Virus record (IMG/VR): IMGVR_UViG_3300045996_002710
Coordinates: 1-52,185 of that record
Length of the DNA: 52,185 nucleotides
Reading direction: 5' to 3' (one strand)
From: a virus
Part shown: one piece after another, positions 9,609-46,337 of the stretch
How the letters are laid out: the number at the start of each line of letters is the position of its first letter
How positions within the stretch are numbered: the first letter of the stretch is position 1
Program-made: the position numbers and the translations under genes
The notes under the pieces: generated by a model
What the model saw: only the letters and a program-made list of their open reading frames with translations
Databases searched by the model: none
What the model was told of the DNA's origin: nothing

Positions 9609-10243
9609 GAACTGCTCCGGCAGGTGCAGGTGTCGCAGTGGCGCCGGGCAGCCGCAGTGGTCGGGGCAGGCCAAGCCTGGCGGTTGCCGGCACCTGCGGC
9701 GAATGCCCGGCGTTGCGCGACCGTGTTCACCGCGACGGAGACCGACAGCGTGCCCTTCGCGACGGACTGCTGTTCGTCGTCGTCCAGCTGGAGCAGGTCA
9801 AGGCGGGACTTCACCCAGCCCGGCGAGCGGGCCAGCGACGCGGCGACCTCCTCGCGGGACATCTTCACCGGCGCCTCGAACATCAGCCACTCCACCGCGC
9901 GGGCCTCGGCCATCGGGTCGAACGGCCTGGCGGTCGAGTGCATCGCCAGCTGCCGCAGGGTCCGCTGGACGTCGGTGAACGGGCTGTTCCGTGGGATCGC
10001 CATCAGCGAGCCGAGCCCGGCCAGGCGGGCGGCCTTGAGCCGGCGGTTCCCATCCCAGACCGGCCAGCGCCCGTCGATGGCCGGCTCGACGAGGACCGGC
10101 TGCTGCTGGCCGTGACGCTTCAGGCTCGCCGCCAGCTCGGTGACGTCGCCCAGGTCGCCGCGGGCGTTCACACCGTGGACGAGGTCGGCGATCGGGATAC
10201 GCAGGACACCGGCGACGATCTCCGGGCTCTTCGTGGTCGTCAC
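9605..10243 (-). CDS. ParB-like N-terminal (ParB/Srx nuclease-type) domain protein
   Basis: PVLV..DGNRRLKAARLAG box typical of the ParB N-terminal domain. Confidence 0.75.
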   Translation of the reverse strand: MTTTKSPEIVAGVLRIPIADLVHGVNARGDLGDVTELAASLKRHGQQQPVLVEPAIDGRWPVWDGNRRLKAARLAGLGSLMAIPRNSPFTDVQRTLRQLAMHSTARPFDPMAEARAVEWLMFEAPVKMSREEVAASLARSPGWVKSRLDLLQLDDDEQQSVAKGTLSVSVAVNTVAQRRAFAAGAGNRQAWPAPTTAAARRHCDTCTCRSSS

Positions 10244-10746
10244 GATGCGCCCTCCTTCCTGACGTCGTGGTAGAGACCGGTCGAGGTGAGGTAGACGAGC
10301 CGCCGCTCGATCGGCAGGAGCACCGGGATGGCGAGCGGCTCCGCGCGGCCGCGGATCAGCCAGCCGCCCTCGCGAGACGCGGCAGGGTTGGCGTGCACGA
10401 CCTGATGGCAGCCGTCGACCTCGGACCCGCCGCAGAGCAGGATGCAGTTCTGCACCGTGTGCTGGACCTGCTGCCCGCGGCGCAGCCGGTGATGGATCGA
10501 CCAGCGGCGGCCGCGCTCGTTCGGGCCCACGCCGTACCCGCAGATCAGGCAGGACTCCCGCTCGCGCTCTACTACGGCAGCGACGACATCAGCGGGCGGT
10601 CCGACCGGACCGCTCACCTTCCTCGGTGCGCTCTTCCGGGCCCCGGGCTGCTCCCGGCCGGCCTTCTGCTGCATCGGGGTAACCCGGCGCAGGCCGGTCT
10701 TCGCCACGAGGGGCGTGTACCGCTGGAGTGGGCCGCCGCGCTTCAT
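10240..10746 (-). CDS. HNH endonuclease (168 aa)
   Basis: CLICG..IHHRLRRG..NCILLCG..GCHQVVH. Trimmed to the ATG at 10746 (ATGA overlap). Confidence 0.75.
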   Translation of the reverse strand: MKRGGPLQRYTPLVAKTGLRRVTPMQQKAGREQPGARKSAPRKVSGPVGPPADVVAAVVERERESCLICGYGVGPNERGRRWSIHHRLRRGQQVQHTVQNCILLCGGSEVDGCHQVVHANPAASREGGWLIRGRAEPLAIPVLLPIERRLVYLTSTGLYHDVRKEGAS

Positions 10747-11138
10747 GACGCCGCCAGGTCGAACAGGGTGGGCTGGTCGACGACCGCGGCGCGGCCGGGC
10801 GGCTGCTCGCCGTGCCGACGCGAACCCCGAGCCGCCGAGTCGACCGCGAACAGGCCCGGGCTGTCGGCGCGGCACGAGCACGGGCACACCCACCGGCACG
10901 GCTTGCCGGCCAGCCACACCTGGGTCCGGGCGCCGCCGCGGCGGTCGATGACGTACGTCTCGCAGGTCGGCGGCGGGGTCCACACCGTGTGCGCGCACTT
11001 CAGGTGCTCACCGCTGACGCAGTACCCGCACCGGCCCCACTGGCAGGGGCAGTGGGTGATCAGCGCGTTGTGGGTGAAGTCGTCGACGCGCGCCAGGACG
11101 ACAGTCCTGACCCACGCAGCAGCGTCGGCATCCATCAC
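10743..11138 (-). CDS. Cys-rich hypothetical protein (131 aa)
   Basis: HCPCQWGRCGYCVSGEHLKC and CRWVCPCSC clusters. Confidence 0.65.
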   Translation of the reverse strand: MMDADAAAWVRTVVLARVDDFTHNALITHCPCQWGRCGYCVSGEHLKCAHTVWTPPPTCETYVIDRRGGARTQVWLAGKPCRWVCPCSCRADSPGLFAVDSAARGSRRHGEQPPGRAAVVDQPTLFDLAAS

Positions 11139-11383
11139 GGGAGCCTCCTCGGCGGGTTCTGCTCCTCGGCCAGCCGGCGCCGCTGCCGCAGAGCGGTGCG
11201 AACGAACTCGGCAGCCTTGTACGTCGCCAGGTCGGCGACAAGGCGGGCGTTGGCGTGCTCCAGCTCGGCGATCCGCTCCGCCCTGGCCTCCAACAAGCCG
11301 TCCCGGTAGTCGATCTGCGCCTCGGTAACAAGCTCATCGACAGGACGGAGTGGCCAGCGGAGACGACGGAACCAGCGGGTCAC
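11135..11383 (-). CDS. Hypothetical coiled-coil protein (82 aa)
   Basis: Minus-strand ORF in the coupled operon. Confidence 0.55.
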   Translation of the reverse strand: MTRWFRRLRWPLRPVDELVTEAQIDYRDGLLEARAERIAELEHANARLVADLATYKAAEFVRTALRQRRRLAEEQNPPRRLP

Positions 11384-11667
11384 GACGGCTCACCGACGTA
11401 ACGGGCGTAGATCCGGCCGGTGCCGTCGTTCATCCGCGAGGCGATTTCGAAGGCGCCGATGGGCAGGAATGCCCCAGTGCGGCCCCTACGGAACTGATTG
11501 GCGAGGGACGTCGCGGATTTGTCTCCGCCCTCGAACACGACCGCCCAGCGCTGCGGATTGGCGCGCAGCTGTGCAGCAACGAACTCGTAGAGGCTCGGGC
11601 GGGACTTGGGACCGGGACGGCCGGTCCTCGACGGGGGCGGGTCTTCCCACCGCAGGACACCAGTCAT
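11380..11667 (-). CDS. Hypothetical protein (95 aa)
   Basis: Minus-strand ORF in the coupled operon. Confidence 0.6.
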   Translation of the reverse strand: MTGVLRWEDPPPSRTGRPGPKSRPSLYEFVAAQLRANPQRWAVVFEGGDKSATSLANQFRRGRTGAFLPIGAFEIASRMNDGTGRIYARYVGEPS

Positions 11668-32867: not shown

Positions 32868-33893
32868 CTACTCCTTCTCCATGAGCCGCATCAGCGCGGC
32901 GGCGTTGTTGTCGAACGTGCGGTCTTGCACTGCCGTGCGCGCCGCGAGGGCGAGTTCGGCACGCTGGTCGGGGTGGTCGAGGTAGTAGCGGAGCAGCGCG
33001 GACGCTTCCTCCGGCGACCCGAAGCGGGGCAGCATGTGCAGGACCTCGTCGCCCTCGCCGCGCGGGTCCCGCAAGAAAAACGCGCCGCACGCCGCGAGCT
33101 CAAGCTCCCGCGGGCCCATCGACCAGCCGGCCGACAGCTCGGGACGGTTCGCCTCGCGCCGGTAGAGGTTCATGCACACCGCGGTGGAGCGGTAGATGGC
33201 GGCGGCGTCCTCGTTGTCGAGGCACTCCTCAACGTCGCCGGGGACGTACTTCCGCAGCGGCGAATCCTCGGCGAGGCGCTGCCAGTTGCCGGCGAGGAGC
33301 ACGTCGATGCCGTCGAGGTTCATCTGCTCGAGGAAGTGGATCCGCGACTCGTAGCCGGTGCCGACGAAGCTGAAGTCGCAGGCCAGCATCGGGTCGGCCG
33401 GACCTGGGTGGTGGATCGACGGCCGGTACGCCTTCGGCATGTAGACCGTGCGCGTGAGCGCCCGCAGCGCGGCGAGGTTCGTCGGGTCGTCGGCCAGCAC
33501 CAGGTCGACGTGCGGCGCCAGCTTCAGGTGCCGATCGTGCTCGTACGGCTCCTCGGTGCACAGCAGCACGACCTTCGTACCGTCGCGGCGCGCCTGCTCG
33601 AGCACGTCGGTGTCGGTAAAGAACCCGCTGACGATGAACAGGACGTCCGGCCGGATCTTCCACAGCGCCGCGGCCAGCCGGTCGACGGCGAGGTGGGTCG
33701 CCTGCTCGCCGGTAAGGGCCTTCCGGAACGTGTCGGGTCCGGCCTGCAGCAGGACGTTGTCGTAGAAGGTGAGCGCGTCGCCGAGCGGGAACGGTGCGAC
33801 CTTCTCACCGGCGGCGCGGAGCGCCTCGAGCCAGCCGGCGTACGTGTCGTGCACGCTGAACGCGGGCCCGGGATGGACAGCGAGCCACCTCAC
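32868..33893 (-). CDS. CgeB-type / GT1-like glycosyltransferase (341 aa) embedded in the neck module
   Basis: Trimmed to the GTG at 33893 (GTGA overlap). C-terminal RELELAACGAFFLRD...FGSPEEASALLRYYLDHPDQRAELALAARTAV resembles the Glyco_trans_1_2 (CgeB) family. Confidence 0.7.
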   Translation of the reverse strand: MRWLAVHPGPAFSVHDTYAGWLEALRAAGEKVAPFPLGDALTFYDNVLLQAGPDTFRKALTGEQATHLAVDRLAAALWKIRPDVLFIVSGFFTDTDVLEQARRDGTKVVLLCTEEPYEHDRHLKLAPHVDLVLADDPTNLAALRALTRTVYMPKAYRPSIHHPGPADPMLACDFSFVGTGYESRIHFLEQMNLDGIDVLLAGNWQRLAEDSPLRKYVPGDVEECLDNEDAAAIYRSTAVCMNLYRREANRPELSAGWSMGPRELELAACGAFFLRDPRGEGDEVLHMLPRFGSPEEASALLRYYLDHPDQRAELALAARTAVQDRTFDNNAAALMRLMEKE

Positions 33894-34312
33894 AGGAGCA
33901 CCTCCACGGGGAACTCGGCGCCGAGGTATCGGGTGGCGCCGTACGTGTAGGGGCCGGGGTTGCGGGGTTGGCCGAGGCGGGTGGAGTCGACGAGCCCGCC
34001 GAGGGTCGGGTCGGCGTTGACCGCGGCGACGAGCGATGAGGCGCCGGTCGGGGCGAGGAACGGTGTGAGGCGTGACCATGCGGCGCGGTTGTCGCCCCAC
34101 TGGACGAAGACGTTGACGATGAGGTCGAGGTCGGTGACGTCGCCCATGGCCACGTCGTAGTCGGCGATGCCACCTTCTCCCTCGCCGAGGGATACGACGA
34201 TCGCCGGGACCGTGCCGAGGTCGCCGGGCGGGAACGCGTGCCGTTTCGCCAGACCGTCGACGTCGACGAACCGGGCGGCGAGGGCTTCCATGACGTCGAG
34301 GAAGTCGGTCAT
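33890..34312 (-). CDS. Neck protein (head-closure/tail-terminator class, 140 aa)
   Basis: ATGA-coupled directly after the head-tail adaptor. Confidence 0.55.
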   Translation of the reverse strand: MTDFLDVMEALAARFVDVDGLAKRHAFPPGDLGTVPAIVVSLGEGEGGIADYDVAMGDVTDLDLIVNVFVQWGDNRAAWSRLTPFLAPTGASSLVAAVNADPTLGGLVDSTRLGQPRNPGPYTYGATRYLGAEFPVEVLL

Positions 34313-35202
34313 GCGACGAGCACCGCGTCACGCCGGTACGGCTTGAGAAACTTCAGCGCCCGGGCGTTCTCGCCGACCTGAACGGTGAACTCGCCCTCGC
34401 CGGCGACGCCGAACGGGCTGTCCTTGAGCCGGAACGTGTCGGCGGCGATGATCCGGGCAGCGGTCCGGATGGCCGGCGGGACCTTCGGCCAGCCCCACAC
34501 GCCGGTGATCTGGACGGTGTCGAGGCGTCCCTGCGTACCGGTCGGGAAGGTGCCGGTGGTGAGGACGAGCTCGTCGTACGGGCGCCGCTCGGGCGCCGCG
34601 CCCGGGTTGTAGGGCAGGAGCCGGTAGCCGCCGCTGAGGGTGGTGGCGAACGTCCCGTCGCCGGCGGTGTCCGTCTTGACGGCGGACGCCGACACGAGGT
34701 CGCAGAACGCGGGCAGCCGCACCGTGGTGTAGCAGTCGGCCGGCTCGAACGTCCGCGCCTCTGAGAGGCCACGCCAGAACACCCGGTCGCAGTGCGTCTC
34801 GATCCACCGTGACGCGGCGAAGCATGCGGCGTGCAGCTCGTCGTCGTCCTCGGTGGAGTCGATCGACAGCCGCGACTTCAGGGTGGACACGGGGCAGTAC
34901 AGGTGCCCGAGCTGGGTCTCCTGGACGTCCCAGGTGCCGACCTCGGTGTCGACCGCGGTGCCGGTACCGACCCATTCGTAGGTCCAGGTGCCGTCCTCGC
35001 TGCAGGCGATGTCCTTGCGGTAGACGCCCGTTCCGGTGCGGGTGATCTCCGCCGCGGCGTACGTGTAGGTCGTTTCCGCGCCGAGCGGGTCGGTGATGAT
35101 CAGCGACACTGTCGTCGGGTCGGTTGCTGTGCCGCTGACCGTGAAGGTGTTCGAGACCGTCGCCAGTTCGGACGCCGAGGAGAAGAACACGCTGGCGCTC
35201 AC
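34309..35202 (-). CDS. Head-tail adaptor (gp6-like) with an N-terminal Ig-like domain (297 aa)
   Basis: Trimmed to the GTG at 35202 (GGAGGTG upstream, GTGA overlap). LKSRLSIDSTEDDDELHAACFAASRWIETHCDRVF matches the gp6-like connector motif. Confidence 0.75.
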   Translation of the reverse strand: MSASVFFSSASELATVSNTFTVSGTATDPTTVSLIITDPLGAETTYTYAAAEITRTGTGVYRKDIACSEDGTWTYEWVGTGTAVDTEVGTWDVQETQLGHLYCPVSTLKSRLSIDSTEDDDELHAACFAASRWIETHCDRVFWRGLSEARTFEPADCYTTVRLPAFCDLVSASAVKTDTAGDGTFATTLSGGYRLLPYNPGAAPERRPYDELVLTTGTFPTGTQGRLDTVQITGVWGWPKVPPAIRTAARIIAADTFRLKDSPFGVAGEGEFTVQVGENARALKFLKPYRRDAVLVA

Positions 35203-36536
35203 GTGACACCTCCGCTCGATGTGGCACGGGCCGTGACGGCCGCGGTGGAGGTCCGACCTGCGGAAACCGCGGACGAGCTGTCGACGGCCTCGGTGACCGC
35301 AGCGGTGGACGTGGCCCGGACCGGGTCGGTGCCCGGTGTCACGACCGTCGCGGTTGCGGTCAGCACTGCTACGGCGGTGAGCGTGGCCTGTGCGGCAGCG
35401 GCGACAGCGGCGGCCGCCGAGACGCTCGCCGTGGTCGTGAGTGCTGCTGCAGCGTCGGAAGGGCTGAGAACGTCGGCGGTGGCGGTGATGGTCGCCGTGA
35501 CGGTTGCCGCCGCGGTCGTGGGCCGGTCCGCCGCAGCGGCTGCCGTGAGCGTGGCGGTGACGGTCTGAGCGGCGGTCGTGGGTCGGTCGACGGCACCTGC
35601 CGCGGCGATCGAGGCAGTTGCGGTCACAGTGCCGGCTGCGGCCCGGTCGACCGCGGCCGCCGCCGTGCGGGTCGCGGTCGCTGTCACTACGGCAGCTGCC
35701 GCGGCCGTGACTGCGGCGGCTGCGGTGACCGTCGCCGTGATGGTCCGCGCTGCAGCTGCGGCCCGGTCGACGCTGCCGGCGGCTGTGAGCGTGGCTGTTG
35801 TCGTCGCGGCGGCGTCCGCGCTGTGCGTGGTGCCGCCGCCAGAGCGGCCGACCGCCACGCTCGCGCCGAGACCGTAGCTCCACACCGGCACCGAGGACGA
35901 CGCCACCGACGTGTTCGTGAGCGACGTCTGGTTGGCGCCGTTGCCGGTGAGGTCGATCATCGACTGGCCGGTGGCGTGCTGGTCGAGGAGCCACAGGCCG
36001 TCGGGCGCCATGCCCAGTGCGGCGAGCAGCGTGTAGGGCAGCTGCTCCCACTCGGGATCGGACAGTGCCCGCTTCACGGCGCCGTTGAGGAGGATGTCGC
36101 CGTTGAAGAAGTCGGTGGTCTGCCAGCGGCCGATTTGGATCCGGCCGCCGGTCAGGTCTGTCGAGTCGCCGCCGGTGCCCGCGGCGGCGTCCGCGTGCGT
36201 CCACGTATTGGTGTCGAACACATACTTGTGGCCGCGGGGAACCGAGGTGCCGGATGCCCGGCTGACGCCCGCGAGGACCCAGTTGTCGGAGGTGGTGATT
36301 CCGACGGTGGTGTCCTTGTTGCTGGTGCCGATGATCAGTTGGATGGTGTTGGTGTTCGAGAACTGCAGCGCCAACTTGGAGCTGTTCGCCGATGTCTCGA
36401 TGCTCAACGGGGTGTGCCAGGCGCCGTTCGCGCCGCGGCGGCAGATCGTCCACAGGGAGTGCCCGGACGAGCCGATCCCGACGAGCCCGCCGATGCTGCC
36501 GGTGATGTAGTCAGCGCCGGCGAAGGTGCGGGCCAT
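35199..36536 (-). CDS. LamG/ConA-like jelly-roll domain protein with an approximately 220-aa Ala/Thr tandem-repeat C-terminus (445 aa)
   Basis: N-terminal W..AGVSRASG..HKYVFDTNTW..IGRW..FFNGDI..RALSDPEWEQL pattern. C-terminal repeats of the form VDRxxxAAxTVTATxTAAAA. Confidence 0.75.
   Translation of the reverse strand: MARTFAGADYITGSIGGLVGIGSSGHSLWTICRRGANGAWHTPLSIETSANSSKLALQFSNTNTIQLIIGTSNKDTTVGITTSDNWVLAGVSRASGTSVPRGHKYVFDTNTWTHADAAAGTGGDSTDLTGGRIQIGRWQTTDFFNGDILLNGAVKRALSDPEWEQLPYTLLAALGMAPDGLWLLDQHATGQSMIDLTGNGANQTSLTNTSVASSSVPVWSYGLGASVAVGRSGGGTTHSADAAATTTATLTAAGSVDRAAAAARTITATVTAAAAVTAAAAAVVTATATRTAAAAVDRAAAGTVTATASIAAAGAVDRPTTAAQTVTATLTAAAAADRPTTAAATVTATITATADVLSPSDAAAALTTTASVSAAAAVAAAAQATLTAVAVLTATATVVTPGTDPVRATSTAAVTEAVDSSSAVSAGRTSTAAVTARATSSGGVT
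35230..35860. repeat. Imperfect in-frame tandem repeats (GC-rich, Ala/Thr codons) inside 35199..36536
   Basis: Recurring gtcgaccg(g/a)(g/c)cc...acggcgacggtcaccgc-type units. They generate long shadow ORFs on both strands. Confidence 0.7.
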
Positions 36537-36539
36537 CGG

Positions 36540-36818
36540 CTACTGCCCTTCGATGACGGTCCTTCCGGCCCGCCACCAGCACACCAGGGCGAGCAGTGCC
36601 GCTTTCTGGTTGGCGGTCGCGGCCGTGCGGAAGGCGACGTTGAGAGCGGCGTTGAACGACGTCGCAGGCACCGACGAACCGGCGGATTCCGCCCAGTCGT
36701 CGACGTTGTCGACCGCGGTCCGCAGCACGCTCTTCACGAACGCGCACGGCTCCCCGACGACGGTGCGCATGAACGCCCGGGCGACCGCGTCCCTCTGCTG
36801 GGTTGTGAGTACCGCCAT
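36540..36818 (-). CDS. Hypothetical structural-module protein (92 aa)
   Basis: Minus-strand ORF between structural genes. Confidence 0.6.
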   Translation of the reverse strand: MAVLTTQQRDAVARAFMRTVVGEPCAFVKSVLRTAVDNVDDWAESAGSSVPATSFNAALNVAFRTAATANQKAALLALVCWWRAGRTVIEGQ

Positions 36819-36828
36819 GGCCCGCTCC

Positions 36829-37350
36829 CTACGTGGTCGTGTAGGTGAGAGCGGCCCCGACGAACTCGGCGTCGCCGGTTGCGGTGTCGCCGCCGGCGGC
36901 GCCCTGCCGGGCGATCCGGACGACGACGAAGTCCCCGGCGGCGACGCTGTCGGCGTTCGTCATCGTGATGCTCGCCTCGTCGAGGTGGCCGGCCGTGCCG
37001 GGCACGGTGACGGTGGCGGTGTTCGCGGTGGCGAAGACCTTCGCGTCGACGTCGGTGCTGTCGCCGTCGGTGACCGCGGCGATTGACCCGGCCCAGATGA
37101 CGTCGCCGGTCGTCGCTGACGCCATCTTGTACTGGACCTTCAGCACCGGAGCTGACGCGTAGTCGGCCGGCATCCGGAACGACCAGCTGGCCCATTCCTC
37201 GGTGGCCGCGTCGAACCACAGCTCCAGGAAGTACGGCGCCGGCGCGCTGCCGGACGACTTGCGGCGCTGCAGGGCCGGCGCGAGGTTCGTCGCCGAGCCG
37301 TCCGGCAGCACGGCGCCGCCGACGGGCAGGAGGATCGTCCCGGTGGCCAT
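36829..37350 (-). CDS. Hypothetical virion-module protein (173 aa; beta-rich, possible decoration protein)
   Basis: High-GC3 ORF in the head/neck module. No family recognised. Confidence 0.6.
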   Translation of the reverse strand: MATGTILLPVGGAVLPDGSATNLAPALQRRKSSGSAPAPYFLELWFDAATEEWASWSFRMPADYASAPVLKVQYKMASATTGDVIWAGSIAAVTDGDSTDVDAKVFATANTATVTVPGTAGHLDEASITMTNADSVAAGDFVVVRIARQGAAGGDTATGDAEFVGAALTYTTT

Positions 37351-37353
37351 GCG

Positions 37354-37746
37354 CTACGCCGCGATCGGCGTGAACGCGAACGTCAGCGACGTCAGGTTCA
37401 ACGTGTCACCGTTCGTGATCGACTTCGACGACGTCAGCGCGACGGAGAACAGGAAGTTCCCGGCGGAGATGTTGTCCCACACACTGATGTGCGAGATGGT
37501 CTCCGAGCCGGCCGACCAGCTGGTCCAGGACGGCAGCGTCGAGGTGATCGCCTTCGACCCTGCCGAGGCAGCCGACCACGTGAGCGCCTTGCGCGTCGTC
37601 TCGGCGGAGGCGTTCGATGTGCCGGCCGAGCCGGGGTCGCCGGTGTGGAGCTTTACGTTCGCTGACGACGGCGCGGTGAACGCCGTTCCGGCGAGCATGT
37701 CCAGCCACTTGTTGGCGAGGTTGACCGCGTGCAGGCCGACCGTCAT
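37354..37746 (-). CDS. Hypothetical virion-module protein (130 aa)
   Basis: VKLHTGDPGSAGTSNA...SHISVWD...GDTLNL pattern recurs in phage structural regions. Function unknown. Confidence 0.6.
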   Translation of the reverse strand: MTVGLHAVNLANKWLDMLAGTAFTAPSSANVKLHTGDPGSAGTSNASAETTRKALTWSAASAGSKAITSTLPSWTSWSAGSETISHISVWDNISAGNFLFSVALTSSKSITNGDTLNLTSLTFAFTPIAA

Positions 37747-37852: not shown

Positions 37853-38428
37853 TCACCACCGATCGGGTCTGCCGCGGGTTGATCCCGGGGCGAGGTTCCA
37901 CCGCCACGTCTTCTGCGGCAGGTGGTAGAAGCGGGCACCTTGTCGGTGCATGGCCAGCCACAGGCCCCAGTCCTCGCACGGGTCTCCGTGCTCGTCGGGG
38001 CGTGCCTGGAAGCCGCCGGCCTCGCGCACGAGCGCGGTTCGGGCGAGGACGGTGACGGGGATGAAGTTCCGCCGCTGCAGCAGGTCGCCGTCGAACGGGA
38101 TCCCGAAGCACCCGACCGGGTCGTCGCCGCCGGCCGTGTCGTAGCCCGGGTAGACGACGTCAGCGCCGTTGAGCCGCGCCGCCCGCGCGCACAGGCGCAG
38201 GTGGTCCGGGTACAGCTCGTCGTCGTCGTCGAGGAACGCGACCCATTCGGTGTCCACTGCCTCGAGGGCGCGGTTGCGGGTCGCGGCCGCGCCCTCTCGG
38301 TCGGCGTCGAGTTGCGCCAGGATTCGGTGCGGCTTGAGCGTCTGCGTCTGCGCGCTCTGCAGCGCCCGTGCGAACGGTCCGTCGCACCCGGTTCGCGGCT
38401 CGATCGTCGGGATGGCGACCGTGATCAC
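37853..38428 (-). CDS. GT2-family (GT-A fold) glycosyltransferase (191 aa)
   Basis: ITVAIPT N-terminus and the FLDDDDE DxD motif. GTGA overlap with the epimerase stop. Confidence 0.8.
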   Translation of the reverse strand: MITVAIPTIEPRTGCDGPFARALQSAQTQTLKPHRILAQLDADREGAAATRNRALEAVDTEWVAFLDDDDELYPDHLRLCARAARLNGADVVYPGYDTAGGDDPVGCFGIPFDGDLLQRRNFIPVTVLARTALVREAGGFQARPDEHGDPCEDWGLWLAMHRQGARFYHLPQKTWRWNLAPGSTRGRPDRW

Positions 38429-39300
38429 GGTGTGAGCGCCCGGGCGACGCCCTCCTCGAGGGACACCTGCGGCTTGTAGATCGCGTGGAAGCGGGCCGGG
38501 TCACCGACCCGGTACGCGACACCCGCGGGCTTGTCGGTGCGGAGCTCGATGTCGGGTGCGTAGCCAGCCTCGTCACAGAACAGCCCGACCAGCTCGGCCA
38601 TGGACGTGCCGACACCGGTGCACAGGTTGACCGGTTCCCGGACGTCCTGCTCGACGACGGCGAGGGCACCGTTGATGACGTCGGAGACGTGGATCCAGTC
38701 GCGGACCTGCGTCCCGTCGCCCCAGATGACGAACGGGTCCTCGCGGCGGCGGGCCCGGGCTGCGAACGCCCCGAACGGCCAGTTCTCGCCCTGCGTCTCG
38801 CCGTAGCCGCTGAACGGCCGGACGATGTGCGTCGGCAGGCCGGCCGCGTTGGCGTCGATCGCCATCCGCTCGCCGGTGAGCTTCAGCCAGCCGTAGCCGG
38901 CGTCAGGGTACTTGGGGTGCTCGAGGTCGATGTCCACCTCGGACAACGCACGCACGAACGGCAGCGTCTGGACTGCGGTCGGGTACGCCGCTGAGCTGCT
39001 GATGTACAGGACCCGCTTCTGCCCGGTCCGGTGTGCCCAGTCGAACATGCCCGCGTCGAGCGCGAGGTTGGTTGCGAGGTGCATCGGTTTGCCGTCGATC
39101 GCTGCCCGGTGGGGTTCAACGGCGGCGCAGTGCACGACGAGGTCGAACACCGTGCCGACGCAGAGCCGGTCGGCGAAGATCTGGCCGGCGTCGAGCCCGA
39201 GCCGGGTGTCGGAGCGCATCACCTGGTAGCCGCGGGCCTGCAGCTCGCGGGTGAAGTGGCTGCCGAGGAGCCCGGCGGCGCCGGTGACGAGGGCTCTCAC
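38425..39300 (-). CDS. NAD-dependent sugar-nucleotide epimerase/dehydratase (extended SDR, 291 aa)
   Basis: VTGAAGLLGS Rossmann motif, SSSAAY and catalytic YGWLK (YxxxK). Trimmed to the GTG at 39300 (GTGA overlap). Confidence 0.85.
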   Translation of the reverse strand: MRALVTGAAGLLGSHFTRELQARGYQVMRSDTRLGLDAGQIFADRLCVGTVFDLVVHCAAVEPHRAAIDGKPMHLATNLALDAGMFDWAHRTGQKRVLYISSSAAYPTAVQTLPFVRALSEVDIDLEHPKYPDAGYGWLKLTGERMAIDANAAGLPTHIVRPFSGYGETQGENWPFGAFAARARRREDPFVIWGDGTQVRDWIHVSDVINGALAVVEQDVREPVNLCTGVGTSMAELVGLFCDEAGYAPDIELRTDKPAGVAYRVGDPARFHAIYKPQVSLEEGVARALTP

Positions 39301-39848
39301 CTGCACCCCCAGATGCCGAACTCGTACTCGCCGCCGCCGGGGCGCATGTCGAGACCCGCGTACACGGCGACGGTGAACCCGGCCTCGCCGAGCATCTCTT
39401 CGACGTCCCTGCGGGACCACGCCCAGTAGTGCTCCGGGTTGTGGTCGCCCCAGCAGTCGACGGGTGTGGACAGGATCAGCGCCTGCGTCTTCGGCCGGAT
39501 CGACCGGAGCACGAGGTCGGGGTCGTCGACGTGCTCGAGCGTCTCGGTGCACACGAACAGGTCCACGTCGGGGATCTCGTGGATCGTCTGCTCGATCGGC
39601 CCGTGGAACGGGTAGCCGGGTGCGTAGTCGCCGAGGTACATGGTCGGCACGCCGAGCGCTTTGAGCGTCGCGCCGTCGCCGCAGGACAGGTCCGCGGCGG
39701 TGGAGACGCGCCCGACGAGGGCGTGTGCCAGCTGGACGGTGACCGCGATCCGGACCTTGTGGTCGTTCCAGCGGGTGTGGTCGTGCGGGCGGGCGTAGAT
39801 CTCGGCGAGTTTCGCGTCGTCGTACGGGCCGCGGAGCCGCTGCTTCAC
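39297..39848 (-). CDS. Class I SAM-dependent methyltransferase (183 aa)
   Basis: DLSCGDG motif I and CTETLEHV. Trimmed to the GTG at 39848 (GTGA overlap). Confidence 0.8.
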   Translation of the reverse strand: MKQRLRGPYDDAKLAEIYARPHDHTRWNDHKVRIAVTVQLAHALVGRVSTAADLSCGDGATLKALGVPTMYLGDYAPGYPFHGPIEQTIHEIPDVDLFVCTETLEHVDDPDLVLRSIRPKTQALILSTPVDCWGDHNPEHYWAWSRRDVEEMLGEAGFTVAVYAGLDMRPGGGEYEFGIWGCR

Positions 39849-40429
39849 GGCTTCACCGCCAGGAGCACCTGGAACGGGCCGACAGCCTCGTGCCTCTGGA
39901 CGGCGAATCCGCCCTGCCTGACCAGATCGGCGTAGCCGTCGAAATCGAACGCCCACGTGTGGAACTCGTACGCGTGACCCGGTCGTTCCTGCCACGGCGA
40001 GGAGCAGACGAGGACGTCAGCGTGCTCGGCGATGGTGCGGACGAACGCGTGCGGGTCGACGAGGTGCTCGAGCATCTCCGTGGCGACGGCGATGCTGCCC
40101 CATTCGAGGGTGTCGGTGAGGACGTCGCCGTGCCGGACGTCAACACCGCGGCCCTTCGCGGCCTCGATGTTCGCCGGTGCGAGGTCGTACCCCCAGCCGC
40201 GGATCCGCGGGCCGAGCAGCGACAGCAGCCCGCCGTCGCCGGCACCGAGGTCGACGAGCGTGTTGAGCCGCCGCGTGAACGCGGCCTGCCCGACGAGCTC
40301 GGCGGAGCGGATGAGCCGGGCCCGGTGCGCTTCCTGCTCGAGGTGCGGCGCGGTCTCCCGGCCGTTGTACCACTCGGCGGTCGTGAACTCGGGGATGGTG
40401 CCTTCGGGAAACAGCCGCCACTGGCTCAT
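39845..40429 (-). CDS. Class I SAM-dependent methyltransferase (194 aa)
   Basis: VDLGAGDG motif I and ATEMLEHL. ATGA overlap. Confidence 0.8.
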   Translation of the reverse strand: MSQWRLFPEGTIPEFTTAEWYNGRETAPHLEQEAHRARLIRSAELVGQAAFTRRLNTLVDLGAGDGGLLSLLGPRIRGWGYDLAPANIEAAKGRGVDVRHGDVLTDTLEWGSIAVATEMLEHLVDPHAFVRTIAEHADVLVCSSPWQERPGHAYEFHTWAFDFDGYADLVRQGGFAVQRHEAVGPFQVLLAVKP

Positions 40430-41136
40430 GCGGCACCTCGCAGTGCACGGACCTTGGCGATGTCCGCGGCGAGCTCATCGGTGAACGCGGCGTACGCCTG
40501 GCCGTCCCGCTCGTACATGCCGCCGTCGTTGACGCGCACGTACCCGGCGTCCATCGCCGCTTTGCCGGCGAACGGGTGCCGGTGTTCGACGACGACGTCC
40601 GGGAGGTAGCGGATGCAGTCGGCGCCGCGGCCGAGGTCGAGCCAGTAGTTGTCGACGAAGAGGTGGGTGAGGACGGGCGGCGCCATGTAGCCGAGCGCCT
40701 TGACGATGTCGGCGGTCATGGCGACCTGCGTCGGGATCCGCTCGCCCTGCAGCAGGTCGTTGCCGTAGACGATGCCGGTGCCGAGGCCGTGGAGGGCCTT
40801 GAGGTAGGCGGTGTCCCAGCCGACGGTCCGCGGGCAGTGGTCGTCGCCCATGAACCCGACCGCGAACGGTGCGTGGTCGTCGTCGACGAGCATCTCCGCC
40901 GCACCGTTGAGCGCTTCCACCATCGAAGTGCTTGGGCCCGTGCCGTAGCCGATGGCCTGGCCCGTCCGGTGCTCGGCGTCCACCGCAGTCTTGTATGCGG
41001 GCAATGCTGGGTCGCTGTTGTCCACGACGAACAGGAGCACCGTGTCGGCGGTGCACGTCGCCCGGAAGGCCTGCGCGAGCTCGGGCACGGCGGCCGGCCG
41101 CTCGCGCGTGGGGACGATGACGATGAGGTCAGCCAC
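40426..41136 (-). CDS. Glycosyltransferase (GT-A-like, 236 aa)
   Basis: LIVIVPTRERP N-terminus, VVDNSD and MGDDH acidic motifs. Trimmed to the GTG at 41136 (GTGGCTGA overlap). Confidence 0.7.
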   Translation of the reverse strand: MADLIVIVPTRERPAAVPELAQAFRATCTADTVLLFVVDNSDPALPAYKTAVDAEHRTGQAIGYGTGPSTSMVEALNGAAEMLVDDDHAPFAVGFMGDDHCPRTVGWDTAYLKALHGLGTGIVYGNDLLQGERIPTQVAMTADIVKALGYMAPPVLTHLFVDNYWLDLGRGADCIRYLPDVVVEHRHPFAGKAAMDAGYVRVNDGGMYERDGQAYAAFTDELAADIAKVRALRGAA

Positions 41137-41317
41137 GGCGACCACGCCGCTTCGGCTGCTCGGCCTCGACGCCCTCGGGTGCACGCGCGGTGAACCGTTC
41201 CGGCATGTCCTGGACGATCTGGTCGGCGGTGTCGTACTCGTCGCCGGCGTTCAGAGCGACACTCCGGCCGTTCCAGCCGACGAACCCGTAGTCGCCGGCG
41301 ACGTAGACCTTGCTCAT
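41129..41317 (-). CDS. Small hypothetical protein inside the glycosylation cassette (62 aa)
   Basis: ATGA overlap upstream. High GC3. Confidence 0.55.
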   Translation of the reverse strand: MSKVYVAGDYGFVGWNGRSVALNAGDEYDTADQIVQDMPERFTARAPEGVEAEQPKRRGRRG

Positions 41318-42060
41318 GCCGGCACTCCCGGGTGCGTCGGGGAGAGGTAGCCGCGCTGCGCGAGGTAACCGTCCATCGTCAGGGCGTGGTCTTTGATGTG
41401 CCCCAGCTGGACGGCGGTGTTCACGAACACGGGGTATCCGGCGGTGCCGGCGCGGAGGCAGAACGTGATGTCCTCGCCCATGATCCGGCCGTTGAAGTCG
41501 GTCTCCTGGAACCAGGGGAACGCCTTGGAGAAGCCGATCTCTCCGGGCCGGTGGGGGTTCGGGTAGTCACGGATTCGCTCGAGGACGGTGCGGTGGATGA
41601 GCAGGCACGCGGCGCCGGTCGCGAAGACCTGCATCATCGCGTCGGGCTGCCACTCGTCGTACCGGACGAACTGCACGTCGTCCTCGGTGCCGGTGAGGTC
41701 GTACAAGGTCGGGAAGTAGCGGCCGTTGTCGTTGCCGAAGCACAGCCCGCCGACGATCGGCGCCTTCTCCGGGTCCGCCTCGGCGAGGAGCCGCTCGAGC
41801 AGGTCGTAGCCGAACGTCATGTCGGTGTCGAGGAACAGCAACCACTCGGCCTGCGTGTCCTCGAGGAACTTCTTGACCAGCGCGTTGCGGGCGCCGGAGA
41901 CGTTGACGCCGGATCCCCAGCCGAGCGGGCCTCCACCCTCGCGGAGCCGGCGGGTCGTGAATTCGTCGTGCCGGTCCAGGTCGATCAGGCACTCCATGAA
42001 CCGCGACTTGACGTCGGTTCCACAGACATAGCCGATGACGACCTTGCCATTTCCTGACAC
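41314..42060 (-). CDS. GT2-family glycosyltransferase (248 aa)
   Basis: LLFLDTDM DxD motif and EDITFC. Trimmed to the GTG at 42060 (AAGGGA upstream) so that it does not run through the capsid terminator hairpin. Confidence 0.8.
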   Translation of the reverse strand: MSGNGKVVIGYVCGTDVKSRFMECLIDLDRHDEFTTRRLREGGGPLGWGSGVNVSGARNALVKKFLEDTQAEWLLFLDTDMTFGYDLLERLLAEADPEKAPIVGGLCFGNDNGRYFPTLYDLTGTEDDVQFVRYDEWQPDAMMQVFATGAACLLIHRTVLERIRDYPNPHRPGEIGFSKAFPWFQETDFNGRIMGEDITFCLRAGTAGYPVFVNTAVQLGHIKDHALTMDGYLAQRGYLSPTHPGVPA

Positions 42061-42085
42061 TGTGTCCCTTTCCCAGGTAGGCGAA

Positions 42086-42112
42086 AGCCCCGGCACCTGG
42101 GATGCCGGGGCT
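42086..42112 (-). terminator. Hairpin immediately downstream of the major capsid gene (attenuator/terminator)
   Basis: AGCCCCGGCA-7 nt-TGCCGGGGCT, a 10-bp stem. Confidence 0.6.
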
Positions 42113-42153: not shown

Positions 42154-43626
42154 CTACGCCAGCGCGGTCGCCGCGGCGACCTGGTTCAGCTGGAGCAGGC
42201 GGAACGCGTCGACGTCGGTGACGTCGGCGCCGACGCGCCAGAACGCGAACCAGCCGGCCTGGCCGGTCGGACGGCCGTTGCCGGTCGACTTGACCATCGG
42301 CTCGTACATGATCGACATGCCGACGCGGTCGACGATGACGTACTGCTCGAAGTTGCCGGCGAGCAGGATGTTGCCGCCGGTGGTGACGACCGACGCCATG
42401 GTCGACGCCTCGTACTGCGGCTGGCCGAGCAGCTGCGACGGGACGCCCATGCCGAGGTTGGCCCAGAAGGCGGAGCCGCCGGACGTGTCCATCTGCCGGA
42501 TCAGGCTGTAGATGCGCTTGTTGGCGATCCACGAGGCCTTGGCGGCGTCGCGGGGCCGGAGCGCGTCCGCGACCCGGTAGACGTCGCCGGCGACGAACGC
42601 GTTGGTCGTCGCTGCGGTGACGATCGACGCGGTGACGGCCTGGACAGCGGCGACGATACCGCGGGGGATGCTCGCGCCGGTGTTGCCGGTGGCGAACGCC
42701 GCGCCTTCGAGGCGGGCCTTCGCGTCGGCGAGGAGGCCGCTCAGGGACGACGCGAAGCCGGAGTCGGCGAGCATCTCGTAGGAGCCGAATACCCACGCGG
42801 CTGCCTTGCGGGGCGTGATCGTCGGCTGGCCGAACGTCGGGGACTTGTCGGCGGCCTCGACGCCCTCACCGAGCCACTCGGCGGTGACGCCGGCGGAGGT
42901 GACGCCGTTCCAGTCGTCGGTCGCGATCTGCTTGACGGTCGCGACCTGACGGATAGGGTCGGCGATCCCCGAGTTGGTGAGGATGATCGTCGGGTCCAGC
43001 GTAAACGGCACCATATAGCCGCCGTTCGCGGCCGTCAGCGACATCGCGGCACGCAGCGCCTCGCCGACGTAGCGGGTCTCGACGAACTCGCGGAACTCCT
43101 CGTGGTACTGCTCGCTGCCGGTCAGCAGCATGTGCCGGGCGATCAGCGGCGACTGGACGCCCTCCTGCTCGATCAGCTGGGTGACCTGCTGGCGGGCGAC
43201 GTCCTTCATGTGCCGCGGGGCACGCTCGATCGCGGTCTTCGCCCGCTCGATGACCTCGTTCGGCTCGACCATGCCACGCTTGACCTGAATCAGGTCGGCG
43301 TACGGGTCGAGGTTCCGCTTGACCTCGGGACCGCGGTCGCCGAGGTACTTCGCCGGACGGGCACCGTCGCCGGACTCGACGTTCGCCGGGTCGAGCGCAC
43401 GGGAACGGACGGCGTCGAGGCGGGCCTGACGCTCGGCGAGCGGCTTGCGCTCGGTCTCGAGCTCGTCCCAGCGGGCGAGGAGGTCGTCGGTCTCGACGCC
43501 CCGGTCCTCGAAGATCTTCGACCGGGTGGCTTCGTCGCCCTCCGGGTCGGCCAGGCCGGCGAGCTCGTCCAGGCGGGCCCGGATCGCCTCCTGCTCCTTG
43601 ATGACTTCCTGCAGTCGGGTCTTCAT
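42154..43626 (-). CDS. HK97-fold major capsid protein with an N-terminal coiled-coil delta/scaffold domain (490 aa)
   Basis: ANGGYMVPFTLDPTII..., WNGVTSAGVTAEWLGEG and FAFWRVG motifs typical of the HK97 family. Follows the protease. Confidence 0.9.
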   Translation of the reverse strand: MKTRLQEVIKEQEAIRARLDELAGLADPEGDEATRSKIFEDRGVETDDLLARWDELETERKPLAERQARLDAVRSRALDPANVESGDGARPAKYLGDRGPEVKRNLDPYADLIQVKRGMVEPNEVIERAKTAIERAPRHMKDVARQQVTQLIEQEGVQSPLIARHMLLTGSEQYHEEFREFVETRYVGEALRAAMSLTAANGGYMVPFTLDPTIILTNSGIADPIRQVATVKQIATDDWNGVTSAGVTAEWLGEGVEAADKSPTFGQPTITPRKAAAWVFGSYEMLADSGFASSLSGLLADAKARLEGAAFATGNTGASIPRGIVAAVQAVTASIVTAATTNAFVAGDVYRVADALRPRDAAKASWIANKRIYSLIRQMDTSGGSAFWANLGMGVPSQLLGQPQYEASTMASVVTTGGNILLAGNFEQYVIVDRVGMSIMYEPMVKSTGNGRPTGQAGWFAFWRVGADVTDVDAFRLLQLNQVAAATALA

Positions 43627-46337
43627 CGCATCCCTCGGGAGATCTGAGCGGCGCGGATACGCCGCGTGATGTCGATCTGCCGACCGGAGTGCCGCGTCAG
43701 CGGCGGGTCCTCGGCCCCGAGCTCCACGGTGGAGGTGGGGGTGTCGTCGCCCAGTGCGGGCGCTTCGTCCTGCGGGATCTCGGTGTCGGCTCCGTCGAGT
43801 TCGACGCCGAGGGAGCGCAGCAGCTCGAGCCGATCGTCATCGGGGAGCGCTGCGAAGTCTGCAAGCAGGTCCTCGCGTGACCGGATGGCCATGATCGCGG
43901 CCCCGGCGTTGACCGGGATCGGGGTCGGGCCGTAGTCGGTGAGGCCGAGCTCGTGTCGGGTGATGGTCGGGAGGCCGCCGGAGCGGGACCGGGTCGGGAC
44001 CCGGTCCGGGCTGGAACGGATGATCCGGCCGCGGAACGACTGGGAGCGGATGGCGCCGTTGCGGATGGCCTCGAGGACCTCGTCCGCGTACGGGCTCTTG
44101 TTGTAGCGGGTGACCGTGAGCAGGCCCTGACCGTCCGGTTTGATCTCCAGTGGTGTGCCGATCGGGATCTGCGCCATCGGGTCGGGCTTGCCGTCGACGA
44201 CGGACATGCCGTGGTTGTAGAGGCACATCGCCGACTGGCCGGCGCCGCCGGCGAGGGTGCGGTTGAACGCGGCCCGGTCGATGACCTCCATGTAGTGGCC
44301 GTGCTGGTCGCGGACCTCGTACGGCGTGCCGAACATCGCCGCGTACGCCTCGACGGTCCGGCCGTCGCCGCTGCGGCTGATCTGGATGTCGGCCAGCGGG
44401 AACGCACGGTCGAACAGCTGCGGTGCGCGCACAGCGACCCCCATCCTGAGTGCTCGGTCGATCTGATCGAGGAGGAACGCGCGTCGTGCGGACGTCTTCG
44501 CCCTCGCCTTGCGCGCCGGCCTCGGCGACTGGGTGGGCAGCTGCTTGAGGTCGCCGATCCGCTTCAGCAGTTCGGGCGTGACCTTGCCGTCCGCTTCGAC
44601 ACCGAGCGCCTTCTGTAGCTTCTTCACCGCGGACGTGGTCTTCGGCCCGTACTTCCCGTCGGCAGCGAGGGGCTTTCCGTCCGAGTCGGTGACGCCGAGA
44701 CGGGTCAGCGCCGACTGCAGGCCGCGGACCCTCTGGTCGCCGCCCTTGATGCCGTAGCCGGTGCCGGTCTTGCCGTCGAAAGCCAGCGGGCCGGCCGGTG
44801 CAGCGCGTCGGCGGGGACGGCGGGTGGCGGGCTTCTTGCCCTGTCCGCCGACTCGGCCGCCGCCGACCGCGAACTGTCCGCCAGCCGGCGCAGTGTCGCC
44901 GTTCTCCGGGGAGCGGGCACGCTGCGCGTCCTGGAATGCGCGGTCGACGAGACGGAAGAACTTCCGCATGTCGGCCGGGGTGAAGACGCCCCGCCAGTCC
45001 TGATCTTTGCCCCAGTCATCCGGGGCGCCCTTCGGCGTCACACCGATCAGGACGTACGGCTCGTCGTCGCCCATCTCGACCTCGAAGTGGACGTCGCCCC
45101 ACTCGGACCCGGCGACGATTCCCTCGGTGAAGGTGATGTACTCCGTATCGTCCGCTCGTGCGACCCGCCGGAGCTCGGCCATTCGCTCCGGGTCGAAGTC
45201 GCCCGCGGCTTCCAGTCGCTCGATCTCGTCCCAGGCTGCTTGCTCGGTCTTGTACTGCTCAATCGCTTCTTCCAGTGCGGGCCGGATCCGGTCGACGACC
45301 CGGCGGAGGCTGTACTCGTCCAGGTTCGCTGTGCCGTTGAAGCCGATGTCATCGCCGGTGAGCAGCTCCTGGATGTCGGCGAGCCGCGCGTCGGTCTGCG
45401 CTTGACGGCCGTCGTCCCCATCGGCCTCGTCATGATCGTCGATGAGGTCGCGCTGCTCGGCCTTGAGCCGCTCCCGCTCGCCCGGGGGCAGTGGCGGCGG
45501 GGATGCGTTGCCGTCCCATGCGGCGATCCCCGCATCGCGGTCGCGGCGGCCGTACCCTTCACCGCCGGCGCCGAAGCGGATCATTCGCCGCCCAGCCGTG
45601 TCGGTGACCGCGAGCCGGATGCCGCCCTGATCGCTGTCGACCCGGCCGGAGCCGACGAGCCGCTCGCCGGGGCGGAGGTTGATCCGGCCGTCGAGGCGGA
45701 GCGTGTCACGGGTGGCGCCGGTCGACGTCCACTGGCCGCCATCCTCACCACTGCCGACCCGCAGTTGGCCCGGGTTGTACTTCCGCTCGACACTCGCCCG
45801 GTCCATGAATACCCCCTGCAGCACCTCGTCGATGGCCGCGAGCAGGTCCGCTACGTCGTCGGTTGCATCGCTGTCCTCGCCGCCGTCGTCTGGCGGGTCT
45901 AGGTGCAGCGTTGCCGGGTCGTCTTCGTCGGCGCCGAAAGTCACGGTGATGACGCCGTTGCCGAGCAGCTCGACCGTGTGGCTGTCCTGGAAGCCGAACC
46001 GGCGGTCGTCGTAGACGCCGTGTCCGTCGGCGTCGTCGGGCAACTCCGCACGGGCTTCGGCGAGCGCCTCGATCGCATCGCCGAGGCCGGCCACGTCCTC
46101 GCCGTCGAGATCCATCTCGACGACCTGACCGCCGTCGCGGAACGCAAGCCGGACGTCGCCGACCTCGTCGACCCCCATCGCAAGGGCGCCGAACGTTCCT
46201 TCGATCTCGACGACGTCGTGCAGGCCAGTCAGGTTGACTACGTCGCCTGGCAGGCCGCCGTCACCCCATCTGCCGTTTGCGGCTCGCGGCTGTAGCGGGT
46301 TGTACCGGCGGATGATCGTGCGCACGGCCCACCTCAC
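43623..46337 (-). CDS. Fusion protein: unknown about 560-aa N-terminal region + PG_binding_1 domain + HK97-type (S78/U35) prohead protease + C-terminal tail (904 aa)
   Basis: Trimmed to the GTG at 46337 (GTGA overlap with the portal stop). GLQSALTRLGV..DGKYGPKTTSAVKKLQKALGVEADGKVTPELL is a PG_binding_1 pattern (about 44540-44750). EAYAAMFGTPYEVRD..HGHYMEVI..AFNRTL..CLYNHG is a prohead-protease pattern (about 43930-44415). Confidence 0.8.
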   Translation of the reverse strand: MRWAVRTIIRRYNPLQPRAANGRWGDGGLPGDVVNLTGLHDVVEIEGTFGALAMGVDEVGDVRLAFRDGGQVVEMDLDGEDVAGLGDAIEALAEARAELPDDADGHGVYDDRRFGFQDSHTVELLGNGVITVTFGADEDDPATLHLDPPDDGGEDSDATDDVADLLAAIDEVLQGVFMDRASVERKYNPGQLRVGSGEDGGQWTSTGATRDTLRLDGRINLRPGERLVGSGRVDSDQGGIRLAVTDTAGRRMIRFGAGGEGYGRRDRDAGIAAWDGNASPPPLPPGERERLKAEQRDLIDDHDEADGDDGRQAQTDARLADIQELLTGDDIGFNGTANLDEYSLRRVVDRIRPALEEAIEQYKTEQAAWDEIERLEAAGDFDPERMAELRRVARADDTEYITFTEGIVAGSEWGDVHFEVEMGDDEPYVLIGVTPKGAPDDWGKDQDWRGVFTPADMRKFFRLVDRAFQDAQRARSPENGDTAPAGGQFAVGGGRVGGQGKKPATRRPRRRAAPAGPLAFDGKTGTGYGIKGGDQRVRGLQSALTRLGVTDSDGKPLAADGKYGPKTTSAVKKLQKALGVEADGKVTPELLKRIGDLKQLPTQSPRPARKARAKTSARRAFLLDQIDRALRMGVAVRAPQLFDRAFPLADIQISRSGDGRTVEAYAAMFGTPYEVRDQHGHYMEVIDRAAFNRTLAGGAGQSAMCLYNHGMSVVDGKPDPMAQIPIGTPLEIKPDGQGLLTVTRYNKSPYADEVLEAIRNGAIRSQSFRGRIIRSSPDRVPTRSRSGGLPTITRHELGLTDYGPTPIPVNAGAAIMAIRSREDLLADFAALPDDDRLELLRSLGVELDGADTEIPQDEAPALGDDTPTSTVELGAEDPPLTRHSGRQIDITRRIRAAQISRGMR

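Follow-up and report, generated by a model that had tools for sequence, protein, structure and literature searches.

A LamG-headed actinophage protein with 20-residue repeats as a candidate rope of beads-on-a-string neck fibers

Results

A candidate rope protein in the neck module of an actinophage

We analyzed a 52,185-nucleotide viral sequence (IMG/VR record IMGVR_UViG_3300045996_002710, positions 1 to 52,185; hereafter the window) and focused on a 445-residue protein, the target, that is encoded between head and tail genes and consists of an N-terminal LamG-like jelly roll and a C-terminal tail of short repeats. We consider it probable, with modest confidence, that the target is the LamG-tipped rope subunit of a beads-on-a-string neck fiber, of the kind solved in phages GP4 (fiber I) and Bas63 (whiskers). 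In those fibers, an extended rope carries Gp80-type dimers "like beads on a string" (PMC12609058; PMC11445570); the rope runs through the bead monomers and completes their incomplete β-sandwiches (PMC12609058). In the fiber that we propose, eight to ten 20-residue repeats of the target would form an extended chain of short β-strands, each of which would insert into and complete the open β-sandwich of a Gp80-like subunit, whose gene is the third upstream of the target. At the head-tail adaptor, the rope would be docked by its conserved, S/T-rich last 45 residues, and the jelly roll, probably with the partner protein p173, would be a free carbohydrate-binding tip. With one strand per Gp80-like subunit, the number of repeats would set the number of beads and thus the length of the fiber. 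The parts of the target are:

35199..36536, minus strand: target open reading frame (ORF), ATG start, 445 aa
35871..36536, minus strand: residues 1-222, LamG/ConA-like jelly-roll domain, from AlphaFold2 (AF2) and Foldseek
35346..35825, minus strand: residues 238-397, eight 20-aa repeats, the proposed rope; in-register stack, lag-20 z=9.4
35199..35345, minus strand: residues 398-445 and stop, conserved end with an S/T-rich C-terminal motif (...AGRTSTAAVTARATSSGGVT), the proposed neck anchor

The tail is a 20-residue repeat that varies in copy number

An initial annotation of this DNA had described an A/T-rich repeat tail, and our analysis confirmed it. Residues 226-445 are 78% A, T, V, and S (A 36%, T 23%, V 11%, S 8%), and identity at a lag of 20 residues was 0.45, whereas 500 shuffles that preserved composition gave 0.21 (z=9.4). 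In residues 238-397, eight units align in register with the consensus xxxxAAxT[VIL]TATxTAAxxVD (n=8) and are followed by a more degenerate, S/T-rich 48-residue end. The tail also showed i/i+2 (lag-2) alternation (z=3.4). AF2 gave the tail predicted local distance difference test (pLDDT) values of 30-50, with periodic strands at low confidence, even when relatives with the same type of repeat were aligned.

At the DNA level, the tandem array reported earlier was present but weak, as Tandem Repeats Finder detected 2.2 copies of a 60-nt unit with 74% match (35497-35625) plus short arrays. The shadow ORFs that had been noted on both strands are real; frames other than the coding one that stay open through the repeat would yield Arg-rich nonsense and are therefore shadow ORFs. 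GC content at third codon positions (GC3) was 0.94 in residues 1-225, which is typical of genes in the window (GC 70%). In the last 220 codons, GC3 was 0.80 and GC content at second positions 0.79, values that are expected because nearly every tail codon is GCN or ACN.

The repeat number differs between relatives, as the initial annotation had anticipated. Compared to the target, the closest relative with the same type of repeat (P0013 of locus L017, 405 aa) has one clean 40-aa gap, which corresponds to two units; in register, the target has eight units and P0013 has six. Two relatives with another type of repeat, P0012 and P0016, have lengths 18 aa apart, which equals a single unit of that repeat. 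Among 85 evaluable long family members, 62 had significantly periodic tails, nearly all with a period of 18-23 aa or double that length.

The target lies in a module with a Gp80-like bead gene

Along the minus strand, the gene order is large terminase subunit, portal, a fusion of a peptidoglycan-binding domain with an S78 protease, major capsid protein (MCP), five sugar-modification genes, Gp80-like protein, p173, p92, target, head-tail adaptor (phrog_442), tail terminator, CgeB-like glycosyltransferase (GT), and tail tube. From the Gp80-like gene to the adaptor, genes are spaced 3-10 nt apart, and the target TGA overlaps the adaptor GTG (GTGA). The Gp80-like protein is 31% identical to GP4 gp80, matches a chain of PDB 8JOU (E 7e-9), and has a GC3 of 0.93. 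The features around the target are:

37853..42096, minus strand: five-gene sugar-modification cassette (GT2, GT, methyltransferase, NAD epimerase/dehydratase, GT2), from Pfam and PHROG
37354..37746, minus strand: Gp80-like "bead" protein, 130 aa; PF23140 Gp80 E 2.2e-27; phrog_240
36829..37350, minus strand: p173, partner protein with C-terminus ...LTYTTT; conserved neighbor without a family
36540..36818, minus strand: p92, small partner protein, conserved in many loci as the gene just before the family gene
34309..35202, minus strand: head-tail adaptor, GTG start; phrog_442 E 9e-26
32868..33893, minus strand: GT1/CgeB-like glycosyltransferase, after the tail terminator; PF13524 E 5.4e-18

Repeat type co-varies with the upstream bead gene

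Relatives of the target (locus numbers L, protein numbers P) with N-terminal domains (N-domains) that are about 80% identical have wholly different C-terminal repeats. We distinguished four types:

A/T-type repeat, period 20: target, P0013
"TPxGALxRQTAK" repeat, period 18: P0012, P0016
"ETDTAxALGRxKTR" repeat, period 20: P0014, P0025
"TPAAIAAxAxLPAATISAGST" repeat, period 22: P0015, P0017, P0018

For about 50 loci (about 25 distinct loci), we compared the type of repeat with the gene that occupies the slot upstream of p173. Repeat period and motif tracked the family of the upstream bead gene:

Gp80-like bead: 20-21-aa repeats with an L/V-T-A-T-x-T core in 11 loci (the window, L017, L010, L026, L040, L033, L032/34, L044, L031, L021, and weakly L001)
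phrog_5417 in the bead slot: 18-aa repeats in five loci (L006, L020, L041, L043, L050)
phrog_644 in the bead slot: 22-aa repeats in three loci (L019, L025, L036) and 20-aa repeats in two (L024, L052)
phrog_26662 in the bead slot: ETDTA repeat in L009

On a tree of N-domains, the bead types are mixed, and sisters with unlike beads include L006/L017, L041/L040, and L026/L025. The pairing of bead and repeat has therefore survived repeated reshuffling, despite the N-domain, p173, and p92 being encoded between the two. That repeat type co-varies with the upstream bead gene points to a protein-protein role of the tail. In the near-isogenic loci L017 and L015, both the bead gene and the rope segment are without detectable DNA similarity. 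The intervening 1.5 kb is 84% identical, and identity rises to 99.4% in the adaptor block, which starts with the last ~23 codons of the family gene. The repeat DNA of the target likewise has no similarity to the L015 tail, with flanks that align.

We also considered the bead-slot proteins p235 and p160 as relatives of Gp80; iterated hidden Markov model searches and hhalign gave no link. The evidence for a bead superfamily consists solely of a weak Pfam match of the 160-aa bead-slot protein of L009 (E 0.009) and visual motifs.

Repeat proteins follow Gp80 genes outside the family

PDB 8JOU holds GP4 gp80 as ten chains. The neighboring gene product, gp79 (325 aa; L014 8948-9925, minus strand, which equals MH638294 57947-58924), has a lag-20 z of 5.1 and ~11 units of 20 aa, compared to ten gp80 chains per fiber. 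We regard gp79 as a candidate rope protein of GP4 fiber I.

In Mycobacterium phage Faith1, gp23, annotated as "head protein", is a Gp80 homolog (genes 23-24 correspond to L012 6001-8676). The next gene product, gp24 ("minor tail protein"), contains about 12 units in residues 440-700 (lag-20 z=5.7) and has no lag-20 periodicity in its N-terminal part. These features suggest that cluster L mycobacteriophages may carry bead-chain fibers made of gp23 and gp24. A Gp80-like gene is present in 675 Mycobacterium phage records.

Repeats with such a period could also be self-sufficient. Many phage fiber shafts consist of short sequence repeats, comparable to the triple β-spiral of adenovirus and reovirus, and the target repeats might fold into a trimeric β-helix or β-spiral shaft without threading, with the small upstream proteins as independent decoration or assembly factors. 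The periodic β-strand propensity and the i/i+2 alternation fit such a shaft, as do the differing C-terminal domains of family members and their lengths of 245 to 1830 aa. We think this explanation unlikely: it does not account for repeat type and period tracking the upstream gene family through reshuffling, nor for the 20-aa-repeat proteins that follow Gp80 genes outside the family, and even when relatives of the same repeat type were aligned, AF2 did not fold the tail with confidence.

The C-terminal end tracks the head-tail adaptor

An ending of the form "(R)TSxxxVTA...GG" was present in 10/10 distinct proteins whose next gene encodes a phrog_442 adaptor and absent from all other proteins compared. 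Between L017 and L015, this C-terminal motif stays with the 99.4%-identical adaptor block. We propose that the motif is a neck anchor or, alternatively, a glycosylation tag.

In L044, a 582-aa ORF (9806-11554) fuses a LamG-like N-domain, ~5 repeats of 21 aa, and a full head-tail adaptor domain (phrog_783 E 6.5e-57), and a Gp80 gene lies directly upstream. This ORF could be a real fusion or a frameshift artifact of assembly.

We infer that the C-terminus of the target is at the neck and that the LamG head, probably with p173, is at the free tip, because the C-terminal end tracks adaptor type, L044 fuses the adaptor C-terminally, and the N-domain is constant across platforms. The fiber might instead be reversed, with the LamG domain and p173 as the virion-proximal anchor and the C-terminus as the distal, host-facing tip. 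Most phage fibers are anchored by their N-terminus and bind the receptor with their C-terminus; some family members have C-terminal enzyme-like or β-helix-like domains (P0033) or long extensions, and domain-only members of about 245 aa occur with p173 (L051). We judge the reversed orientation rather improbable, since the N-domain is conserved on very different virion platforms, the C-terminal end is what changes with adaptor type, and the adaptor domain of the L044 fusion is C-terminal. In addition, the target stop overlaps the adaptor start, and the Bas63 rope is N-terminal to its collar domain (PMC12609058).

The N-terminal domain is a lectin-like jelly roll from a large family

The initial annotation had proposed a LamG/ConA-like jelly roll in the N-terminal ~220 residues, and structure prediction bore this out. 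With a 35-sequence alignment, AF2 modeled residues 1-222 as all-β with a pLDDT of about 95; a single-sequence model of the full-length target had a pLDDT of 38 and was uninformative. Foldseek matched the domain in the PDB to pentraxins, the thrombospondin N-terminal domain (TSPN), neurexin LNS, PAPP-A LamG, and CBM40 (probability 1.0, E down to 2e-6, target-normalized TM 0.5-0.64). In BFVD, the best match was a "LamG-like jellyroll fold domain-containing protein" (E 4.5e-9), and viral proteins named "Concanavalin A-like lectin" were also matched. The motifs on which the proposal had been based (AGVSRASG, HKYVFDTNTW, IGRW, FFNGDI, and RALSDPEWEQL) are all in the target. Searches of the target against Pfam (E<=0.1), NCBIfam (E<=1), and PHROGs (E<=0.01) returned no family, with no Pfam LamG model such as Laminin_G_3 matched, and PDB sequence searches with the target and the N-domain family profile gave nothing meaningful. 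As judged from the model, the N-domain belongs to the ConA-like lectin/glucanase superfamily (LamG/pentraxin/LNS) at the level of fold only and not by sequence. Glycan binding by this domain, which the initial annotation had raised as an alternative, is plausible from its fold.

An exhaustive profile search placed 3,038 clusters at 50% identity in the N-domain family, 850 of them at E <= 1e-30. The domain is almost always N-terminal, and members are either about 225-265 aa or 400-1800 aa long. Among 50,697 cultured-phage records, megablast and tblastn found no match to the region, the target, or the consensus-like member P0003. By these searches, the family is large and has no member in Pfam, PHROGs, or cultured phages. 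Its genes occur on differing platforms: at the neck, after the tape measure gene, in the contractile-tail baseplate region, and after lysis genes. One contig of a Solirubrobacterales metagenome-assembled genome (MAG) encodes two paralogs (L004/L005; 9389-10726 and 13954-15828) in a contractile-tail baseplate region, with Tail_P2_I and Collar as neighbors, which shows that virion platforms with the domain differ widely.

The most conserved family motif, LWLLDQ..T.Q.V.DLTGNGANQ, is at the end of the domain (target residues 180-205, window 35922-35999). It resembles the motif with which Pfam Laminin_G_3 domains usually begin, and its position at the domain end hints that the jelly roll of this family may be circularly permuted.

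Partner proteins and genomic setting

In most loci, p173 is directly upstream of the family protein, with or without p92 in between, and p173 of L007 is 95% identical to that of the window although the tail types differ. For p173, we found no match in Pfam, PHROGs, NCBIfam, or PDB and one weak partial match among the cultured-phage records. The small proteins p92 and p89 are two subfamilies that are about 40% identical, and the choice between them does not track tail type, adaptor type, or N-domain. For p92, there was no Pfam, PHROG, NCBIfam, or PDB relative and no detectable Gp77 homology.

The portal of the window is about 49% identical to portals of Rhodococcus and Gordonia phages, and related prophage copies are found in Dactylosporangium, Streptosporangium, and a Jiangellaceae MAG. 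The protease fusion is a 904-aa ORF (43623-46337, minus strand) with ~530 N-terminal aa without known family, PG_binding_1 (535-593), and an S78 prohead protease domain (657-819); a peptidoglycan-binding domain fused into a head-maturation protease is unusual.

The sugar-modification cassette is a trait of the lineage

Pfam and PHROG matches flanking the target substantiated the neighboring glycosylation cassette that the initial annotation had noted. Six sugar-modification genes (two GT2, a further GT, a methyltransferase, an NAD epimerase/dehydratase, and the CgeB-like GT1) lie inside the virion structural operon, and the CgeB-like GT is conserved in all loci of the window lineage. Since the sugar genes are conserved in all of these loci, glycosylation of the virion is likely. 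In the mycobacteriophages Che8, Corndog, and Myrna, glycans are reportedly carried on the C-termini of capsid and tail-tube proteins. That mycobacteriophages encode O-glycosylation of their own virions is documented (Freeman et al., 2023, Cell Host Microbe, as cited in PMC11256854). The window is likewise from an actinophage with phage-encoded GTs, which makes glycosylation of its virion proteins plausible; here, the cassette is inside the structural operon, and nothing ties it specifically to the target.

From the cassette, the initial annotation had proposed that the tail is a disordered, mucin-like stalk, O-glycosylated by the neighboring GTs to give a glycan-decorated virion appendage. The six genes within the virion operon, the documented mycobacteriophage O-glycosylation, the Thr and Ser content of the tail (together about 30%), and its pLDDT below 50 are all compatible with such a stalk, and the S/T-rich C-terminal motif is confined to GT-bearing loci. 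Several findings speak against it. The cassette is present in every locus of the lineage, with A/T (20), "TPxGALxRQTAK" (18), and "LPAATISAGST" (22) tails alike, and on the loci compared it is a lineage trait, whatever the tail type. In a Dactylosporangium prophage (L010), a comparable A/T/S-rich tail (62% A+T+S) is encoded more than 10 kb from any GT, and tail T+S is not enriched in GT-bearing loci (roughly 0.28, compared to 0.26 in loci without GTs). The composition is unlike that of mucin-like Pro/Thr/Ser (PTS) domains: Pro, counted on the tail sequence, is roughly 3%, with Ala at 36%, Val at 11%, and a strict 20-aa period. Low Pro, high Ala and Val, the fixed period, and the i/i+2 alternation are as expected of a structural β-strand repeat and not of a PTS stalk. 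A strict period of 18-22 aa is kept by repeats of unrelated sequence and co-varies with the bead gene. Finally, we searched the C-termini of the MCP and tail tube for the C-terminal motif of the target as a common glycosylation tag and did not find it there. We therefore consider the glycosylated stalk unlikely, although the target itself may be glycosylated.

Discussion

Rope-and-bead architecture was already known from GP4 and Bas63. What is new is a family of lectin-headed putative ropes, its size and absence from curated libraries and cultured phages, and matched cassettes of rope and bead. A broader version of our proposal, which we regard as possible but tentative, is that LamG-headed proteins are a large class of modular phage fibers in which the rope would serve as a molecular ruler as well as an adaptor, with a unit length (18, 20-21, or 22 aa) suited to one of several interchangeable bead families (Gp80, phrog_5417, phrog_644, phrog_26662, phrog_3758). 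Phages would swap rope and bead together as matched partners and retain the lectin head, p173, and a platform-specific C-terminal anchor; in the window lineage, the fiber might also be glycosylated by the cassette.

Several observations weigh against a rope role for the target. Its tail pLDDT of 30-50 is compatible with disorder too. A sequence search of the PDB found neither gp79 nor gp78 of GP4, which leaves gp79 as a candidate for the GP4 rope, and hhalign found no homology of the target or the N-domain family to either protein. The bead-slot families other than Gp80 have no demonstrable Gp80 homology (hhalign probability <1%), phrog_644 pairs with two periods (22 and 20 aa), and P0033 of L011 is flanked by Gp80 and Gp77 genes but lacks clear repeats. 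The C-terminal motif is confounded with the presence of GTs, and the adaptor fusion is found in one contig (L044), with 0/76 long representatives having one. PF23148, the Gp77-type Ig collar, was not detected among the scanned module ORFs of the window, p92 included, so that anchoring would have to use the phrog_442 adaptor directly. Lastly, the L017/L015 mosaic fits one contiguous block exchange, because the block between bead gene and rope (84%) is less similar than the region downstream (99.4%). We accordingly downgraded this pair as a case of two independent swaps. If a single exchange occurred, linkage contributes to the co-variation of bead and repeat, and the tree-wide pattern is the stronger argument.

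Rope-and-bead fibers have so far been known from a few cryo-EM structures. If the target is a rope, a small bead gene next to a gene with 18-22-aa repeats would be a sequence rule for finding such fibers. It would account for low-complexity "A/T-rich" phage ORFs that resemble junk or disorder, and it would provide an annotation for a family of ~3,000 clusters without a Pfam, PHROG, or cultured-phage member. It would also yield candidate identifications, with GP4 gp79 as a rope and Faith1 gp23/gp24 as a bead-chain fiber; phage therapy is one reason for interest in cluster L mycobacteriophages such as Faith1. Fiber length could be manipulated genetically in a simple way through the repeat count, and the lectin head would be a candidate adhesin for actinobacterial cell-wall glycans.

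Among known systems, fiber I of the Ralstonia podophage GP4 consists of gp80 dimers on a rope, anchored by a 15-mer gp77 fiber-tail adaptor (Zheng et al., 2023, J Mol Biol; PDB 8JOU). In GP4 as in the window, a PF23140 Gp80 homolog is encoded in the module and the location is the head-tail junction, and gp79 has a 20-aa period with about 11 units, compared to 8-10 in the target. In L011, the order of Gp80-like gene, family protein, and Gp77-like fiber-tail adaptor (PF23148 E 4.5e-26) is the same as GP4 gp80...gp77. GP4 differs in that gp79 and gp78 have no LamG-like head and in that Gp77 is present. The window, for its part, has two extra constant partners (p173 and p92) and comes from a high-GC actinophage with siphophage-type tail genes (terminator, tube).

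The collar whiskers of the Escherichia myophage Bas63 and the Shigella phage Sf14 contain dimers structurally related to those of GP4 fiber 1 (PMC12609058; PMC11821841). The C-terminal side of the Bas63 rope joins a neck-bound domain, a layout that the LamG-rope-adaptor fusion of L044 mirrors. Unlike the target, the Bas63 rope is an N-terminal extension of an Ig-like collar, carries only two dimers, and has no lectin head. The Anabaena myophage A-1(L) (gp82-gp81-gp80; PMC10966104) also has bead-chain fibers at the neck with a distal carbohydrate-binding module, and its fiber genes form a separate mobile operon (PMC10966104). Its beads, in contrast to those of the proposed fiber, are head-to-tail trimers without a rope, and the proteins are unrelated.

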